NCBI RefSeq assembly: GCF_013315695.1
Contig: NZ_CP054353.1
Source: Escherichia coli
GTDB lineage: Bacteria; Pseudomonadota; Gammaproteobacteria; Enterobacterales; Enterobacteriaceae
Strand: one strand, 5' to 3'
DNA: 64,000 nt
A program made the translations under genes and the position numbers. The notes under the pieces were generated by a model. The model was not told where the DNA came from and did not search any database. It saw only the letters and a list, made by a program, of their open reading frames with translations. How positions within the stretch are numbered: position 1 is the first letter of the stretch; every line of letters begins with the position of its first letter. This document shows, in pieces, positions 4,576-16,995 of the stretch.

Positions 4576-5640
4576 TTACAGGAATGACTTGAATGGCAGA
4601 TCCGGTTCAATAGTGAAGCAATCATCGAAACCGCGCGGATAGTGGTACTCGAAGTTGTCTTTATCCAGCGGCCAGGTAAATTTGCCGCCCACCTGCCAGA
4701 TAAACGGCTTGAAGCCATACTTCAGACGATCTTTTTTCATCTCCCACAGCACGCGGATCTCTTGCGGATCGGCCTGGAAGTTTGACCAGATATCGTGGTG
4801 GAACGGGATAACCACTTTCGCATTCAGCGCTTCACCCATACGCAGCATATCGGCGCTGGTCATTTTGTCGGTAATACCGCGCGGGTTTTCGCCGTATGAA
4901 CCTAAAGCCACGTCGATCTGATGTTCGTTACCGTGCTTCGCATAATAGTTAGAGTAGTGGGAGTCGCCGCTGTGATACAGGGAGCCGCCAGGCGTTTTGA
5001 ACAGGTAGTTCACCGCGCGATCGTCCATGCCATCTGGCAGTACGCCAGCCGCTTTTTGATCGGCAGGCAGGGTGATCAGTGCAGTACGGTCGAAAGCATC
5101 AAACGCATGAATTTCAATGTCTTTCACTTTTACTACATCGCCCGGTTTGACCACGATGCAACGCTCTTTCGGTACGCCCCAGCCAATCCACAAATCCACA
5201 CAGGTTTTCGGTCCAATGAACGGTACGTCATCAGCACCGTTCTGCATCACAGCAGCAGCGACGTTGACGTCGATATGATCGTTGTGATCGTGAGTCGCCA
5301 GTACCGCGTCGACCTGGCGAATCGCAAACGGATCAAGAACAAACGGGGTGGTGCGCAGGTTTGGCTGCAGTTTTTTCACGCCAGCCATGCGCTGCATCTG
5401 GTGACCCTGTTTCATTAACGGGTTACCGTGACTTTGTTTGCCAGTGCCGCACCAGAAATCAACGCAAACGTTGGTGCCACCTTCCGATTTTAACCAGATC
5501 CCGGTGCAGCCAAGCCACCACATCGCAAATGTGCCAGGTGCGACCTGTTCTTGTTCAATTTCTTCATTCAACCAGCTACCCCACTCCGGGAAAGTGCTCA
5601 GGATCTAGGATTCACGGGTGATACTTTTCACTTTACTCAT
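4576..5640 (-). pseudogene. ulaG: ulaG (L-ascorbate-6-phosphate lactonase) with an in-frame TAG at codon 12
   Basis: Minus strand from ATG at 5638-5640 reads [34 protein letters not shown]...; the rest of the frame down to 4576 is intact and matches UlaG. The track ORF 4576..5571 is the TTG-initiated remainder. Confidence 0.75.
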
Positions 5641-7392
<1,752 letters not shown>

Positions 7393-7407: not shown

Positions 7408-7713
7408 ATGACCGTACGTATTCTGGCTGTCTGTGGCAACGGACAAGGCAGTTCCATGATCATGAAGATGAAAGTGGACCAGTTTTTAACCCAATCAAAC
7501 ATTGACCACACGGTAAACAGCTGCGCGGTTGGCGAATACAAAAGCGAGTTGAGCGGCGCGGATATCATCATCGCTTCTACGCACATTGCGGGCGAAATCA
7601 CCGTGACCGGCAACAAATACGTGGTTGGTGTGCGCAACATGCTCTCTCCTGCCGACTTTGGCCCGAAACTGCTGGAAGTGATCAAAGAGCATTTCCTGCA
7701 GGATGTGAAGTAA
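7408..7713 (+). CDS. ulaB: UlaB, ascorbate PTS EIIB
   Basis: 101 aa, [16 protein letters not shown] with active-site Cys. Confidence 0.9.
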
Positions 7714-7722
7714 GGACGCGCC

Positions 7723-8160
7723 ATGAAATTACGTGATTCGCTGGCGGAAGCTGAGACATGGCAGGACGCAGTGAAAATCGGCGTGGACCTGCTGGTAGCG
7801 GCAGATGTGGTAGAGCCGCGTTACTACCAGGCGATTCTGGATGGCGTTGAACAGTTTGGTCCTTATTTCGTTATCGCTCCGGGGCTGGCAATGCCGCACG
7901 GGCGTCCGGAAGAGGGCGTTAAGAAAACCGGTTTCTCTCTGGTAACGCTGAAAAAGCAGCTGGAATTTAACCACGACGACAACGATCCGGTGGATATCCT
8001 CATCACCATGGCGGCGGTTGATGCCAACACTCACCAGGAAGTAGGCATCATGCAGATCGTCAACCTGTTTGAAGATGAAGAGAATTTCGACCGTTTACGC
8101 GCCTGCCGTACCGAGCAGGAAGTACTGGATCTCATTGACCGCACCAACGCGGCAGCTTAA
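7723..8160 (+). CDS. ulaC: UlaC, ascorbate PTS EIIA; about 9 codons shorter than the K-12 protein as recalled
   Basis: 145 aa, [24 protein letters not shown]...; recalled K-12 UlaC is 154 aa with [23 protein letters not shown]. Confidence 0.8.
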
Positions 8161-8173
8161 GAAGGAATTGAAC

Positions 8174-8824
8174 ATGTCATTACCGATGTTGCAAGTCGCG
8201 CTGGACAACCAGACTATGGATAGCGCCTACGAAACCACTCGCCTGATTGCCGAAGAAGTCGACATTATCGAAGTGGGTACCATTCTGTGCGTGGGCGAAG
8301 GCGTGCGTGCGGTTCGCGATCTGAAAGCGCTCTACCCGCACAAAATCGTGCTGGCAGACGCCAAAATTGCCGATGCGGGCAAAACTCTTTCTCGTATGTG
8401 CTTCGAAGCCAACGCTGACTGGGTGACCGTAATTTGTTGTGCGGATATCAACACCGCCAAAGGTGCGCTGGACGTGGCAAAAGAGTTTAACGGCGACGTG
8501 CAGATCGAACTGACCGGTTACTGGACCTGGGAACAGGCGCAACAGTGGCGCGACGCAGGTATTCAGCAGGTGGTTTATCACCGCAGCCGTGACGCGCAGG
8601 CCGCTGGCGTGGCGTGGGGTGAAGCCGATATCACTGCGATCAAACGTCTTTCCGATATGGGCTTCAAAGTCACCGTCACCGGTGGCCTGGCGCTGGAAGA
8701 TCTGCCGCTGTTCAAAGGCATTCCAATTCATGTGTTTATCGCCGGTCGCAGCATCCGTGATGCCGCTTCTCCGGTTGAAGCCGCGCGTCAGTTCAAACGT
8801 TCCATCGCCGAACTGTGGGGCTAA
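8174..8824 (+). CDS. ulaD: UlaD, 3-keto-L-gulonate-6-phosphate decarboxylase
   Basis: 216 aa from ATG 8174, [36 protein letters not shown]... Confidence 0.9.
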
Positions 8825-8833
8825 GGAGCGGAT

Positions 8834-9688
8834 ATGTTGTCCAAACAAATCCCGCTTGGCATCTATGAAAAAGCGCTCCCCGCCGGGGAGTGCTGGCTGG
8901 AACGCCTGCGACTGGCAAAAACGTTGGGCTTCGATTTTGTCGAGATGTCGGTAGATGAAACGGACGAGCGCCTGTCGCGCCTCGACTGGAGCCGCGAGCA
9001 GCGTCTGGCGCTGGTGAATGCGATTGTTGAAACCGGCGTGCGTGTGCCGTCCATGTGCCTTTCTGCCCATCGTCGTTTCCCGTTGGGCAGCGAAGATGAC
9101 GCGGTGCGGGCGCAGGGGCTGGAGATTATGCGTAAAGCCATCCAGTTCGCCCAGGACGTTGGCATTCGCGTGATCCAGCTGGCGGGCTATGACGTTTACT
9201 ATCAGGAAGCCAATAACGAAACGCGTCGTCGTTTCCGTGACGGCCTGAAAGAGAGCGTTGAGATGGCGAGCCGCGCGCAGGTGACGCTGGCGATGGAGAT
9301 CATGGATTACCCATTGATGAACTCCATCAGCAAGGCGCTGGGCTACGCGCACTATCTCAACAACCCGTGGTTCCAGCTCTACCCGGATATCGGCAACCTG
9401 TCGGCGTGGGACAACGATGTGCAGATGGAATTGCAGGCCGGAATAGGGCATATCGTCGCGGTGCATGTGAAAGACACCAAACCTGGCGTCTTCAAAAACG
9501 TGCCATTTGGCGAAGGCGTGGTGGATTTCGAACGTTGCTTTGAAACGCTCAAACAGAGTGGCTATTGCGGGCCGTACCTGATTGAGATGTGGAGCGAAAC
9601 GGCGGAAGACCCGGCGGCAGAAGTGGCGAAAGCGCGTGATTGGGTGAAAGCGCGCATGGCCAAAGCAGGCATGGTGGAGGCTGCATAA
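8834..9688 (+). CDS. ulaE: UlaE, L-ribulose-5-phosphate 3-epimerase
   Basis: 284 aa, [25 protein letters not shown]..., TIM-barrel sugar-phosphate epimerase. Confidence 0.9.
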
Positions 9689-10323
9689 TGCAAAAGCTAA
9701 AACAGCAGGTGTTTGAAGCCAACATGGATCTGCCGCGCTATGGGCTGGTGGTGATCAAGCCCAGCGGCGTCGCCTACGAAACCATGAAAGCAGACGATAT
9801 GGTGGTGGTTGATATGAGCGGCAGGGTGGTGGAAGGGGAGTATCGCCCATCTTCCGACACCGCGACGCATCTCGAACTCTACCGTCGTTACCCGTCGCTT
9901 GGCGGCATTGTCCATACCCACTCCACTCATGCCACCGCATGGGCGCAGGCGGGGCTGGCGATCCTGGCGTTAGGCACCACGCACGCTAACTACTTCTTTG
10001 GTGATATCCCGTGTACGCGTGGATTAAGCGAAGAAGAGGTGCAGGGTGAGTATGAACTGAACACTGGCAAAGTGATTATCGAAACGCTGGGTGACGCCGA
10101 GCCGCTGCATACGCCGGGAATTGTGGTGTATCAGCACGGGCCGTTCGCCTGGGGGAAAAATGCCCACGATGCGGTGCATAACGCGGTGGTGATGGAGGAA
10201 GTGGCAAAAATGGCGTGGATTGCGCGCAGTATTAACCCACAACTGAATCACATCGACAGCTTCCTCATGAATAAACACTTCATGCGTAAGCACGGTCCTA
10301 ACGCCTATTACGGGCAGAAGTAA
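9688..10323 (+). CDS. ulaF: UlaF, L-ribulose-5-phosphate 4-epimerase (class II aldolase family); carries an in-frame 17-codon deletion
   Basis: ATG at 9688 overlaps the ulaE stop; 211 aa, [30 protein letters not shown]...; the AraD/SgbE/UlaF family has ...[25 protein letters not shown] here. Confidence 0.8.
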
Positions 10324-10380: not shown

Positions 10381-10419
10381 CGCTTCAGTTAAAAAATCAT
10401 ATAAACAACAGGTGTTTTT

Positions 10420-10971
10420 ATGGCTATCAATGGATTGTTTGTCAGAACGGATCCGCAGCGTCGCCGCTATGGCGTTGCGTTACTTGTGGGTGTGCTTTCA
10501 GGAATTATTTCAGCATTTGTTAAATGGGGAGCGGAAGTCCCCTTGCCACCGCGCACATTTTCCGGTGGTCGCGATGAATTTAACCCGCCGTATATCTTTC
10601 TACGAGATTATTTAGGTATCGACCCAACCCAAACTGTGTATACCTTCTCGGAACATATTATCAACCCGGTGATGGTGACGCATATCATCTTCTCCCTGGT
10701 TTTTGCGATAGGGTATTGTGTTGTCGCGGAAATTTTCCCGAAAGTGAAATTATGGCAGGGGATATTAGCAGGGCTTATTGTGACAGTGGCAGTCCACGGT
10801 ATATTTTGCCCGGCGCTGAATTTAACGCCGCCGCTCACTCAATTGCCTTTTGACGAATATGCGTCTGAAATCTTGGGGCATATTTTCTGGTTCTGGATAA
10901 TAGAGATTATGCGCCGCGACTTACGTAATCGCATTACTCATGAGCCGGATCCGGAAGTCGCAATTCGGTGA
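10420..10971 (+). CDS. Small inner-membrane protein, DUF1440/YagU-like
   Basis: 183 aa, ATG with AGGTG RBS 5 nt upstream; four hydrophobic segments; motifs [69 protein letters not shown] resemble YagU-type proteins (from memory). Confidence 0.65.
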
Positions 10972-10980
10972 ATAACCGTA

Positions 10981-13157: not shown

Positions 13158-13952
13158 TTAGTTTCGCAAGTAGATCCATTCACCATTCTCTTGTGTCCAT
13201 AAGTCAGGATGGTTTGCTGGCGTTAGATGCATACGATCACTCCTTATGTCTCGGTCCTGCGGCACTCGCTCGAAACCTAAACCCGAGTAGATTGCTGCTG
13301 AATTTGATAAGGAACGTAGACCAATTTTCAAATCATGGGGTAAATCAGAATACGCGTTTAGCAATGCAGCAATGATGAATCCGAGGGCATTAGAAACGCC
13401 TGTAACAGTGCGAAGTTGGTCGATATAAAGATCGATTGTTGGTAGTTCAGATGACCAGCAATTAGGCATTTGGGCAGGAAGGGTTACAACGTATCCTATC
13501 GTTTGGCCGGTATAGTCTGGAGTACCATAACCAGGTCCCAAAACCACTTCGTGTATTGTGTATTTACTGTTGGGTTCGAAGGATTCGACATCTTGCAATA
13601 AATATTTCAGTTCTGCGGTTAACCTCGCACCCGCGTAAGCTTTATTGTATTTCTGGGCGTGAATATTATCTAATGTAGCTTCATGGTTCCATCCAAAAGA
13701 ATTATCACCATTCATTGTTACTCCATCGTAAGCATTACACTTCGTTGCTAACTTATTGAATGCTTGCCAGTCAGAGAGATCTAGTTTGTGGATCTCAACA
13801 GTACGTCTGCCATCGCAATTATGATCTCTTCCACGATTTGGCAGTAATGTAGCACGTGCATATTGATGAAATTTTAATTTTACTGGTTTGTCGGTGGACG
13901 AAAAATAGGGTGAATATGCAGGAAATGAATAAATAGTCGTTGGTAATGTCAT
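13158..13952 (-). CDS. yjfZ: YjfZ, uncharacterized protein
   Basis: 264-aa ORF, AT-rich relative to neighbours; no motif I can assign. Confidence 0.7.
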   Translation of the reverse strand: MTLPTTIYSFPAYSPYFSSTDKPVKLKFHQYARATLLPNRGRDHNCDGRRTVEIHKLDLSDWQAFNKLATKCNAYDGVTMNGDNSFGWNHEATLDNIHAQKYNKAYAGARLTAELKYLLQDVESFEPNSKYTIHEVVLGPGYGTPDYTGQTIGYVVTLPAQMPNCWSSELPTIDLYIDQLRTVTGVSNALGFIIAALLNAYSDLPHDLKIGLRSLSNSAAIYSGLGFERVPQDRDIRSDRMHLTPANHPDLWTQENGEWIYLRN

Positions 13953-14172: not shown

Positions 14173-14520
14173 TTATTCTACGCTGTTGGTATCGGTGCGT
14201 TTGTTAATCATCTGGTTAACCAGCCACAAAAAGCCATTGAGAAAGTTATTGATTCTACATGGAATTATTATATTTCTAATCCCTGGTTTTTAAAAGTTGT
14301 GCATAGTGAAAATCAAAGTAAAGGTGTGCATTATGCAAAATCACAGCGTCTCTTAGAAATTAACCATACGCACTTGCAGTTAATGGAATCCTTATTGGAT
14401 GAAGGGAAGAAACACAATATTTTTAAGCCAGATAGCGACCCATTGCAGGTGAATATTAATATTGCTGCGCTTGGGGGATATTATTTGATCAACCAGCATA
14501 CGCTTGGCCTGGTTTATCTG
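14173..14520 (+). pseudogene. ytfA: ytfA remnant: C-terminal fragment of a TetR-family regulator, no HTH domain, 3' end abutted by the IS
   Basis: Frame opens after TAA at 14170-14172 and reads ...[22 protein letters not shown]...[24 protein letters not shown] (ligand-domain-like), then runs into the IS left end. Track ORF 14299..14790 is a chimera of this frame and IS sequence. Confidence 0.5.
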
Positions 14521-14574
14521 GTGCGCCGTAAAACCCCGTCCTTCAGGGCGGGGATATACGGCGCGGTTTTCCAC

Positions 14575-15006
14575 CTAACCAGGTGTTTGCTGTTGTTCAA
14601 TGTATTGACGGATGGCGGATATTGGCGCACCTCCGCAGCTACTGGCAAAATAGCCAGGACTCCACAAAACGCCTTTGTAGTAATACCTGACTGCAATATC
14701 TGGTCGATCTCGTCGCAGTCACCTACCCGATACGCCTTTGAGGCTGTTTACCAGACTGGATATCGCCAGTTTGGGAGGATAGTTAATTAACAAATGGACG
14801 TGATCTGGTTCGCCATCCATTTCAACCAGTTCAGCTTCAAAATCAGCACATACATTTGAAAAGTAAGTGCGTAGTTTTTCTGTCGCGTCATAGTCAAAAA
14901 TCTGACGTCGGTATCTGGTGACAAAGACCAGGTGAACATGCATCAGGAAAACACAATGCCTTCCCCGTCGGATATCGGTTTCTTTATTCACAGACCAAAG
15001 TATCAT
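14575..15006 (-). pseudogene. tnpA: IS200-type TnpA (HUH/Y1 transposase) inactivated by an in-frame TGA
   Basis: ATG 15006: MILWSVNKETDIRRGRHCVFLMHVHLVFVTRYRRQ...[31 protein letters not shown](14719-14721)[50 protein letters not shown]. HxH motif is upstream of the stop; the conserved SPGYFA...GGAP C-terminus lies after it. Confidence 0.8.
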
Positions 15007-15013
15007 TTGGCCT

Positions 15014-16222
15014 GTGAAACGACTACAGGCATTTAAATTCCAGTTAAGACCCGGTGGTCAACAGGAGCGTGAAATGAGGCGCTTCGCAGGCGCATGCCGT
15101 TTCGTTTTCAATCGTGCTCTGGCGCTTCAGAATGAGAATCATGAGGCCGGTAATAAATACATCCCTTACGGGAAAATGGCTTCCTGGCTGGTTGAGTGGA
15201 AAAACGCCACTGAAATGCAATGGCTTAAAGATTCGCCCTCACAGCCATTGCAACAGTCACTGAAAGACCTTGAGCGGGCTTACAAAAACTTCTTCCAGAA
15301 GCGGGCTGCTTTTCCCCGATTCAAAAAGCGGGGACAGAATGATGCATTCCGCTACCCGCAGGGCGTTAAGCTCGATCAGGAAAACAGCCGTATTTTTCTG
15401 CCGAAACTTGGCTGGATGCGCTACCGGAACAGCCGTCAGGTCACGGGTGTTGTGAAAAATGTCACTGTCAGCCAGTCCTGCGGTAAGTGGTACATCAGTA
15501 TTCAGACAGAAAGTGAAGTATCCACTCCGGTTCACCCTTCAGCATCAATGGTCGGGCTGGATGCTGGCGTGGCTAAACTCGCCACGCTGTCAGATGGCAC
15601 AGTCTTTGAGCCTGTAAACAGTTTTCAGAAAAACCAGAAGACGCTGGCGAGACTTCAGCGACAGTTAAGCCGCAAGGTCGAATTCAGCAATAACTGGCAG
15701 AAGCAGAAACGCAAAATACAGCGACTGCATTCCCGTATCGCAAATATCCGCAGGGACTACCTTCACAAAGTCACAACGACCGTCAGCAAAAACCACGCAA
15801 TGATAGTCATTGAGGATTTGAAGGTCAGCAACATGTCAAAGTCAGCAGCGGGTACGGTCAGCCAGCCGGGGCGCAATGTCCGGGCAAAATCAGGTTTAAA
15901 CCGTTCGATACTGGATCAGGGCTGGTATGAAATGCGCCGCCAGCTTGAGTACAAGCAGCTCTGGCGTGGCGGTCAGGTGCTTGCTGTTCCGCCAGCGTAC
16001 ACAAGCCAGCGTTGCGCGTGCTGTGGTCATACAGCGAAAGAAAATCGCCTGTCACAAAGTAAATTCAGATGCCAGGCATGTGGATATACAGCGAACGCTG
16101 ATGTAAATGGCGCTCGTAACATTTTAGCGGCGGGGCACGCCGTTCTTGCCTGTGGAGAGATGGTGCAGTCAGGCCGCTCGTTGAAGCAGGAACCCACCGA
16201 AATGATTCAGGCGACAGCCTGA
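15014..16222 (+). CDS. tnpB: TnpB (IS605 OrfB family; RuvC-like RNA-guided nuclease family), apparently intact
   Basis: 402 aa from GTG 15014; N-terminal [12 protein letters not shown]...RFVFNRAL; RuvC-I GLDAGV, RuvC-II VIEDL, zinc finger CACCGH...CQACGY, Ruv[13 protein letters not shown]. Confidence 0.85.
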
Positions 16223-16290
16223 ACGAAGCAGGGATCCACGTCCTTCAGGGCGTGGAGGATGTCAACATATCAGTATGGTTTCCCCCCAGG
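16080..16290 (+). ncRNA. Candidate TnpB right-end guide RNA (omega/reRNA) spanning the tnpB 3' end and right-end hairpin
   Basis: Inferred from family architecture only; right-end hairpin at 16238-16257 is visible; no promoter or processing site identified. Confidence 0.3.
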
Positions 16291-16356
16291 CACTGGAAGC
16301 CAGACGTAAGGTCATCAAAGAGACGCTCCTTAGCTGGCTTTTGGTTGATCCTTCAT

Positions 16357-16995
16357 CTACCGCGCACGAATAAAACTGCCATCCGGCTGGCGGGTAAACA
16401 GGACCTGTTGATTATTCCCCGTATCAATGGTTAAGCCCGTCACCACGCCGCTGGCGTTCTGGCGGATTTTCACCATCTGCCCATTTTGCAAATTACTCAG
16501 CGGCTTACCCGCGCCTTCTACCTGCGCCATTGCATAGACATCGGTAGCGGGCAGTCCGTGGTCGCGGAACAGCTGCGCCATCGTTTTACCGGGTTCGACA
16601 CGGTAAGAGCGCCATTGATTATCAATTCCGCTATCTGGCTGGAATGGTTGCGTTTGGGTAGTTTGCGGCTGTTCTTCTGGCTGGCCTTCCTGTATAGGTT
16701 CTGGAGCGACCGGAGCCACCTGATCAGGATCATTTTGTGGTGTGACTAATTGCGCCCGCAGCTGTTCTTCTGTCGGCGGTTGTGATTGCGACTGAATATC
16801 TAACTGCGCTTCACGCGTCACCACCGGCGCGTTGGGCGTATCATCAGATGGAAGCAGAAATCCGACCACCAATACAATGGCGGCAATAATGATCCCCCGA
16901 CGATGCATCGGCGGCAGCGGGTCCATGAAGCGAAAATTGTCCGGCGCGTGCCAGACTTTCTCCAGGGTTGGTTTTAGTTCAAAGCGCCCGGGCAT
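16357..16995 (-). CDS. ytfB: YtfB, OapA/LysM-domain cell-division protein
   Basis: 212 aa from internal Met ([46 protein letters not shown]...), single TM, Pro/Gln-rich linker. Confidence 0.85.

Follow-up and report, generated by a model that had tools for sequence, protein, structure and literature searches.

The ula region and the short ulaC allele

The window, the whole 64,000-nucleotide stretch of Escherichia coli DNA analyzed here, carries the ascorbate regulon in the gene order of K-12 (ulaR, ulaG / ulaA, B, C, D, E, F). The gene for the EIIA component of the ascorbate phosphotransferase system (PTS), ulaC, is located between ulaB (7408-7713) and ulaD (8174-8824), in a ulaB-ulaC-ulaD arrangement divergent from ulaG and ulaR, which is the position of a UlaC orthologue. 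The features relevant to this analysis are as follows.

4576..5640, minus strand: ulaG, with Trp12 changed to an amber codon (TGG to TAG) at window positions 5605-5607 (codon comparison)
7723..8160, plus strand: ulaC (PTS ascorbate EIIA), 145-aa deletion allele (open reading frame; RefSeq annotation in KL53, EcPF7 and others; Pfam PF00359)
7743..7749, plus strand: ulaC deletion junction, the single kept GGCGGAA of an imperfect direct repeat (comparison with un-deleted alleles)
7957..7959, plus strand: codon 79 of ulaC, CAG (Gln), equivalent to K-12 P88 (Enterobacterales/Streptococcus alignment)
9688..10323, plus strand: ulaF, shortened from 228 to 211 aa by an in-frame loss of 51 bp that takes out GLVTFTWGNVSAIDRER (comparison with un-deleted alleles)
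9741..9750, plus strand: ulaF deletion junction, the kept copy of the repeat CGGGCTGGTG (comparison with K-12 and strain 503025)

The initial annotation had proposed that UlaC of the window is 145 aa long and, with K-12 UlaC taken to be 154 aa, that the difference reflects a 27-bp in-frame deletion near the N terminus. The open reading frame at 7723..8160 (plus strand) confirmed the 145-aa length, and its product is identical to RefSeq protein WP_000776496.1. The K-12 protein it cited was also right in both length and N-terminal sequence: ulaC of MG1655 (NC_000913.3, 4421708-4422172) comprises 465 nt and encodes 154 aa. The 27-bp in-frame deletion, which removes K-12 residues 10-18 (NKSIRLQAE), was borne out when the gene was aligned with its K-12 counterpart and six further E. 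coli alleles; excising 27 nt at offsets 24-27 of the K-12 gene gives the window sequence. The junction (codon 9, GAA, 7747-7749) falls within the interval first reported, 7741-7760.

The reading frame of ulaC is preserved, as are its start codon and the first nine residues of the product. Outside the deletion, the protein differs from K-12 UlaC at two residues only, E24D and P88Q (K-12 numbering). The latter position is proline in the 23 closest homologues, namely all 21 aligned Enterobacterales UlaC proteins and both Streptococcus homologues, and P88Q is fixed across the clade of genomes that carry the short allele. No further ulaC changes were found inside the clade. Rare in-frame deletions of ulaC are not unique to this lineage, because two other variants (P0022 and P0082), each found on a single contig, have different internal in-frame deletions, giving proteins of 146 aa without AILDGVEQ and 144 aa without 10 residues. 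Elsewhere in the operon, ulaE of the unrelated strain 2015C-3905 (locus L016, 6695-7531) is annotated as 837 nt rather than 855 nt, an in-frame difference of 18 bp.

Deletion junctions and the carrier lineage

Spontaneous deletions in E. coli classically arise between short direct repeats, by replication slippage or a microhomology-mediated route. K-12 ulaC contains GGCGGAA and GGCTGAA, 27 bp apart and alike at six of seven bases, and strain 503025 has GGCTGAA and GGCCGAA at the same spacing. The deletion can be placed equivalently at gene offsets 24-27 relative to K-12 and 20-27 relative to strain 503025. The closest un-deleted 5' alleles, those of LAU-OXA and SC418, carry GGCGGAG and GGCTGAA. 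We also re-inserted the 27 bp of K-12 into the window ulaC and searched this hypothetical ancestor against all complete genomes. The best matches (LAU-OXA, SC418 and others) were 97.6% identical over 164 bp, with 18 differences across the whole gene, and no un-deleted allele with a perfect repeat was found in this search. Because the best matches differ at 18 positions and do not have a perfect repeat, the immediate un-deleted ancestor is absent from the complete genomes. All un-deleted alleles examined have only a short, imperfect version of the repeat.

The repeat context of the ulaF deletion is clearer. In K-12 and strain 503025, CGGGCTGGTG occurs as a perfect 10-bp direct repeat with copies 51 bp apart, and one copy remains at the junction in the window. 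That ulaF of the same genomes lost DNA between perfect repeats, so that one class of event would have occurred twice in the operon, strengthens the likely explanation for ulaC, in which 27 bp would have been lost by slipped-strand or microhomology-mediated deletion between in-phase GGCNGAA copies encoding Ala-Glu. The repeats of both genes encode the same residues in phase (Ala-Glu in ulaC, Gly-Leu-Val in ulaF), so selection need not be invoked to account for two in-frame deletions.

Of 5,426 complete E. coli genomes searched, 5,422 yielded ulaC. The short allele is present in 10 of these and absent from the other approximately 5,410. The carriers, KL53, CFSAN051542, FAM21845, 873.10, EcPF7, HH107, A30, LZHX12, NCTC 13148 and F467, match the window exactly across ulaB-ulaC (100% identity); for all non-carrier genomes among the matches listed, the alignment starts at query base 18, 3' of the junction. 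The ulaF deletion occurs in exactly the same ten complete genomes. Identity of the flanking DNA to the window over 8 kb is 99.7-99.8% for the ten carriers and at most 99.0% for all others. EcPF7 matches the window base for base in gene coordinates, with private variants common to both. Carriers originate from unrelated sources (urine, cheese, beef, horse and biosolids), and one of them, FAM21845, belongs to phylogroup A, ST1434, O68:H14 (PMC5514686).

The segment missing from the window protein is present in all Enterobacterales orthologues examined, and its ENxSIRL motif occurs in the solved structures of Streptococcus homologues (3BJV and 2OQT). This conservation indicates that the 154-aa form is ancestral and the short form a derived deletion. 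The nine-codon loss is therefore a real, derived and lineage-specific natural allele. The initial annotation had named 145-aa reference proteins as grounds for rejecting its reading. Such a reference exists (WP_000776496.1), but the match is only formal, as the short form is confined to one lineage, with 10 of the 5,422 complete genomes. In a large protein collection, exactly this 145-aa protein occurs on 566 contigs; the allele is already catalogued in public databases and is in this sense an ordinary finding. Literature searches on ulaC, sgaTBA and the carrier strains turned up neither an account of this allele nor a reported ascorbate phenotype for these strains.

Other differences were seen downstream of the operon. 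An insertion of 592 bp relative to K-12 (10387-10978) places a YagU-family gene (10420-10971) between ulaF and yjfY. A link between this insertion and the ulaF deletion was considered and rejected, as strain C11 has the insertion beside a full-length ulaF. The gene yjfZ (DUF2686; 13158-13952) is intact in the window and EcPF7 and shortened in KL53, HH107, NCTC 13148 and F467, with IS1 adjacent in at least two of these. An IS200/IS605 element at about 14224-16373, containing tnpA (14575-15006) and a tnpB/InsQ RNA-guided endonuclease gene (15014-16222), interrupts a TetR/AcrR-family regulator gene, for which the EcPF7 annotation gives two pseudogene fragments.

UlaC function and the state of the regulon

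In the ascorbate PTS, phosphate passes from EI to HPr, then to His68 of UlaC, to UlaB and finally to ascorbate (PMC6048161). The phosphorylated histidine is kept in the window protein (His59, with the AMPHG motif intact), and both Pro58 and His59 fall in invariant alignment columns. The PTS_EIIA_2 domain (PF00359) as a whole is incomplete. It scores 107.8 bits over profile positions 13-142 (cut-off 27 bits), as compared with 117.6 bits over positions 4-142 for full-length K-12 UlaC, a loss of about 10 bits and of positions 4-12 that includes the N-terminal beta-strand. Homologues of known structure are still recognized by the short protein (3BJV, 2OQT, 3OXP, 2OQ3 and 1A3A; E = 1e-33 to 8e-11).

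AlphaFold2 modeling located the deletion within the fold. With a 27-sequence alignment, K-12 UlaC was modeled at a pLDDT of 94.0, residues 3-10 forming a helix and residues 13-17 a strand; the deletion takes the end of this N-terminal helix and the whole of strand beta-1 of the EIIA fold. Modeled likewise, the window protein reached a pLDDT of 81.0, AlphaFold confidence not being a measurement of stability. Strand beta-1 was not rebuilt, residues 1-5 fell below 50, and confidence was lower through the C-terminal helices as well; the rest of the domain was modeled with an unchanged order of secondary structure. In a set of 27 homologues reaching down to 33% identity, two hydrophobic residues of the lost segment (Ile13 and Leu15) show conservation of at least 90%. 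Because of the shrinkage of the Pfam match, the conservation of the lost segment and the drop in AlphaFold confidence, we consider loss of UlaC function likely. The truncated protein would most probably be misfolded or unstable, and phosphate would then not be passed from HPr to UlaB.

The ulaC deletion is one of at least three ula lesions in the clade, along with the 51-bp deletion in ulaF and the amber codon in ulaG. The ulaF deletion shortens the Pfam Aldolase_II match from positions 1-182 (182.8 bits) to 31-182 (147.8 bits), with the first 30 positions gone. The lost segment, GLVTFTWGNVSAIDRER, which includes TWGNVS, is almost identical in the AraD structure 1JDI and includes the equivalent of the phosphate-binding residue Asn28 of AraD. 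The ulaG amber codon is present in the window and nine of the ten carriers. A30 retains TGG, which makes the ulaC and ulaF deletions older than the ulaG stop. RefSeq re-starts the gene at the ATC codon directly after the stop and calls an intact lactonase of 342 aa.

Upstream of ulaG, in the divergent ula promoter region between ulaG and ulaA, the length of a homopolymer run differs by single bases at 5699-5708. The clade as a whole is 1 bp shorter here than other E. coli, and an extra T at 5708 is confined to the window and EcPF7.

The same Trp12 amber codon occurs in enterotoxigenic E. coli (ETEC) H10407 (NC_017633.1; 5804-6545 of locus L018), along with a 287-bp internal ulaG deletion, and there RefSeq annotates ulaG as a pseudogene. 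Common ancestry of the two amber codons was rejected, since the sequences around them belong to different haplotypes (13 differences within 493 bp of the same bin); parallel mutation, as judged from these haplotypes, is more likely. Divergence of the ula region from six outgroup genomes, in 500-bp bins, ranges unevenly from 1 to 4%, as is usual for E. coli mosaicism. No close match to the region was found among these six genomes. With respect to the idea that the region is a recently imported divergent patch, this result speaks neither for nor against old recombination.

Substitution patterns suggest relaxed constraint on the damaged genes. Polymorphisms within the clade are exclusively nonsynonymous in ulaG (6:0, nonsynonymous to synonymous) and ulaF (3:0), with the amber codon counted as one of the nine. 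A 9:0 ratio is consistent with neutrality (p = 0.075) and inconsistent with strong purifying selection (p of about 2e-6). As a rule, dN/dS is inflated among recent polymorphisms. Fixed clade-unique substitutions were judged against the six outgroup genomes after exclusion of two junction artifacts. Their ratio was 4:6 for ulaG, ulaC and ulaF together and 2:28 for ulaR, ulaA, ulaB, ulaD and ulaE, a contrast between damaged and other ula genes with a Fisher p of 0.026 on small counts. Clade-specific changes in ulaA (0:16) and ulaE (0:8) are purely synonymous and show no excess, which means either that the lesions are recent relative to the divergence of the alleles or that constraint or selection on the transporter persists. 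A nonsense codon in ulaG, deletion of core segments in ulaC and ulaF, and relaxed constraint, the last on small counts, are features of a decaying operon. Collectively, we judge it probable that a repeat-mediated deletion arose in a decaying ascorbate regulon and that the truncated UlaC is unable to relay phosphate. The clade appears to be losing anaerobic ascorbate utilization while annotation calls every gene intact.

It is mainly the lack of excess in ulaA and ulaE that keeps alive a reading of the ulaC allele as tolerated polymorphism, in which loss of the nine residues is neutral or close to neutral, UlaC remains functional, and the allele simply marks the lineage. Consistent with this reading, the deletion is in frame and spares the active-site histidine and the remaining domain, the Pfam score is far above threshold (107.8 versus 27 bits), ulaC is invariant in the clade, and RefSeq annotates the gene as intact. 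However, the deletion takes out a core element of secondary structure in which two hydrophobic residues are nearly invariant. The segment is conserved from Enterobacterales to Streptococcus, and its removal lowers AlphaFold confidence by 13 points. Moreover, the same genomes have lost the TWGNVS segment of ulaF and mostly carry the ulaG nonsense codon as well, and this co-occurrence makes it unlikely that the ula pathway as a whole is under selection. We therefore regard a functional short UlaC as unlikely.

Alternatively, inactivation of ascorbate uptake or catabolism might have been advantageous, with in-frame lesions sparing the genes downstream from polar effects. The regulon carries three independent lesions, two of them in-frame deletions, and these would fit such selection, as would the parallel Trp12 amber codon and 287-bp deletion on the other haplotype of H10407. 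Nonetheless, in-phase repeats yield in-frame deletions without selection, and neutral decay would itself be expected to leave multiple hits once a pathway is dead. Presence in 10 of 5,422 complete genomes gives no sign of a sweep, and the carriers come from unrelated sources. Selected loss thus seems very unlikely. Less probable still are readings in which the lesions go beyond simple decay, with UlaC keeping phosphotransfer or an altered regulatory EIIA-like role, or with loss recurring under positive selection in E. coli, as the identical amber codon in H10407 might suggest. A sequencing or assembly error, or origin of the 154-aa form by a 27-bp insertion or duplication, for which the position of the junction in a short repeat was the sole supporting point found, is refuted by the rarity search, by ten identical complete genomes sequenced independently in different laboratories and countries, by the protein on 566 contigs, and by conservation of the nine extra residues in every orthologue and in Gram-positive solved structures. 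The 27 bp do not repeat adjoining sequence in tandem either.

Decay of the regulon, the reading we prefer, has practical consequences of modest value, amounting to an annotation caveat and a lineage marker and opening no new biological question. As RefSeq calls ulaG, ulaC and ulaF of the clade intact, metabolic predictions would credit these strains with anaerobic ascorbate utilization that has probably been lost. Both deletions, of 27 and 51 bp, can serve as clean markers of a lineage that includes isolates of dairy, bovine, equine, environmental and urinary origin. The case also illustrates how short in-phase repeats give rise to in-frame deletions that escape pseudogene calling.

Comparison with known systems

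The closest reference for the window protein is K-12 UlaC (SgaA, b4195, NP_418616.1), which occupies the same position in ulaABCDEF, is 99% identical over the 145 shared residues and has the same AMPHG motif. It differs in possessing residues 10-18 (NKSIRLQAE), Glu24 and Pro88, whereas the window protein lacks the segment and carries E24D and P88Q. More distant relatives are PtxA/RmpA of S. mutans (3BJV), named as a UlaC homologue in earlier work (PMC6048161), and SPy0176 of S. pyogenes (2OQT). Both share the PTS_EIIA_2 fold and are 44% identical to K-12 UlaC. Unlike the window protein, which aligns from their residue 19 onward, both have the ENxSIRL strand.

At the level of the pathway, ETEC H10407 resembles the window in its ulaG Trp12 amber codon and is a second case in E. 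coli of an ascorbate pathway that is broken. It is distinguished by the 287-bp ulaG deletion, by full-length ulaC and ulaF, and by a haplotype that is 1-4% diverged. With respect to mechanism, both deletions resemble classic direct-repeat deletion, in which one repeat copy and the intervening DNA are lost. For ulaF the fit is perfect (10-bp repeat, 51-bp spacing). For ulaC it is approximate, with six of seven bases alike at 27-bp spacing and an imperfect repeat in all un-deleted alleles examined.
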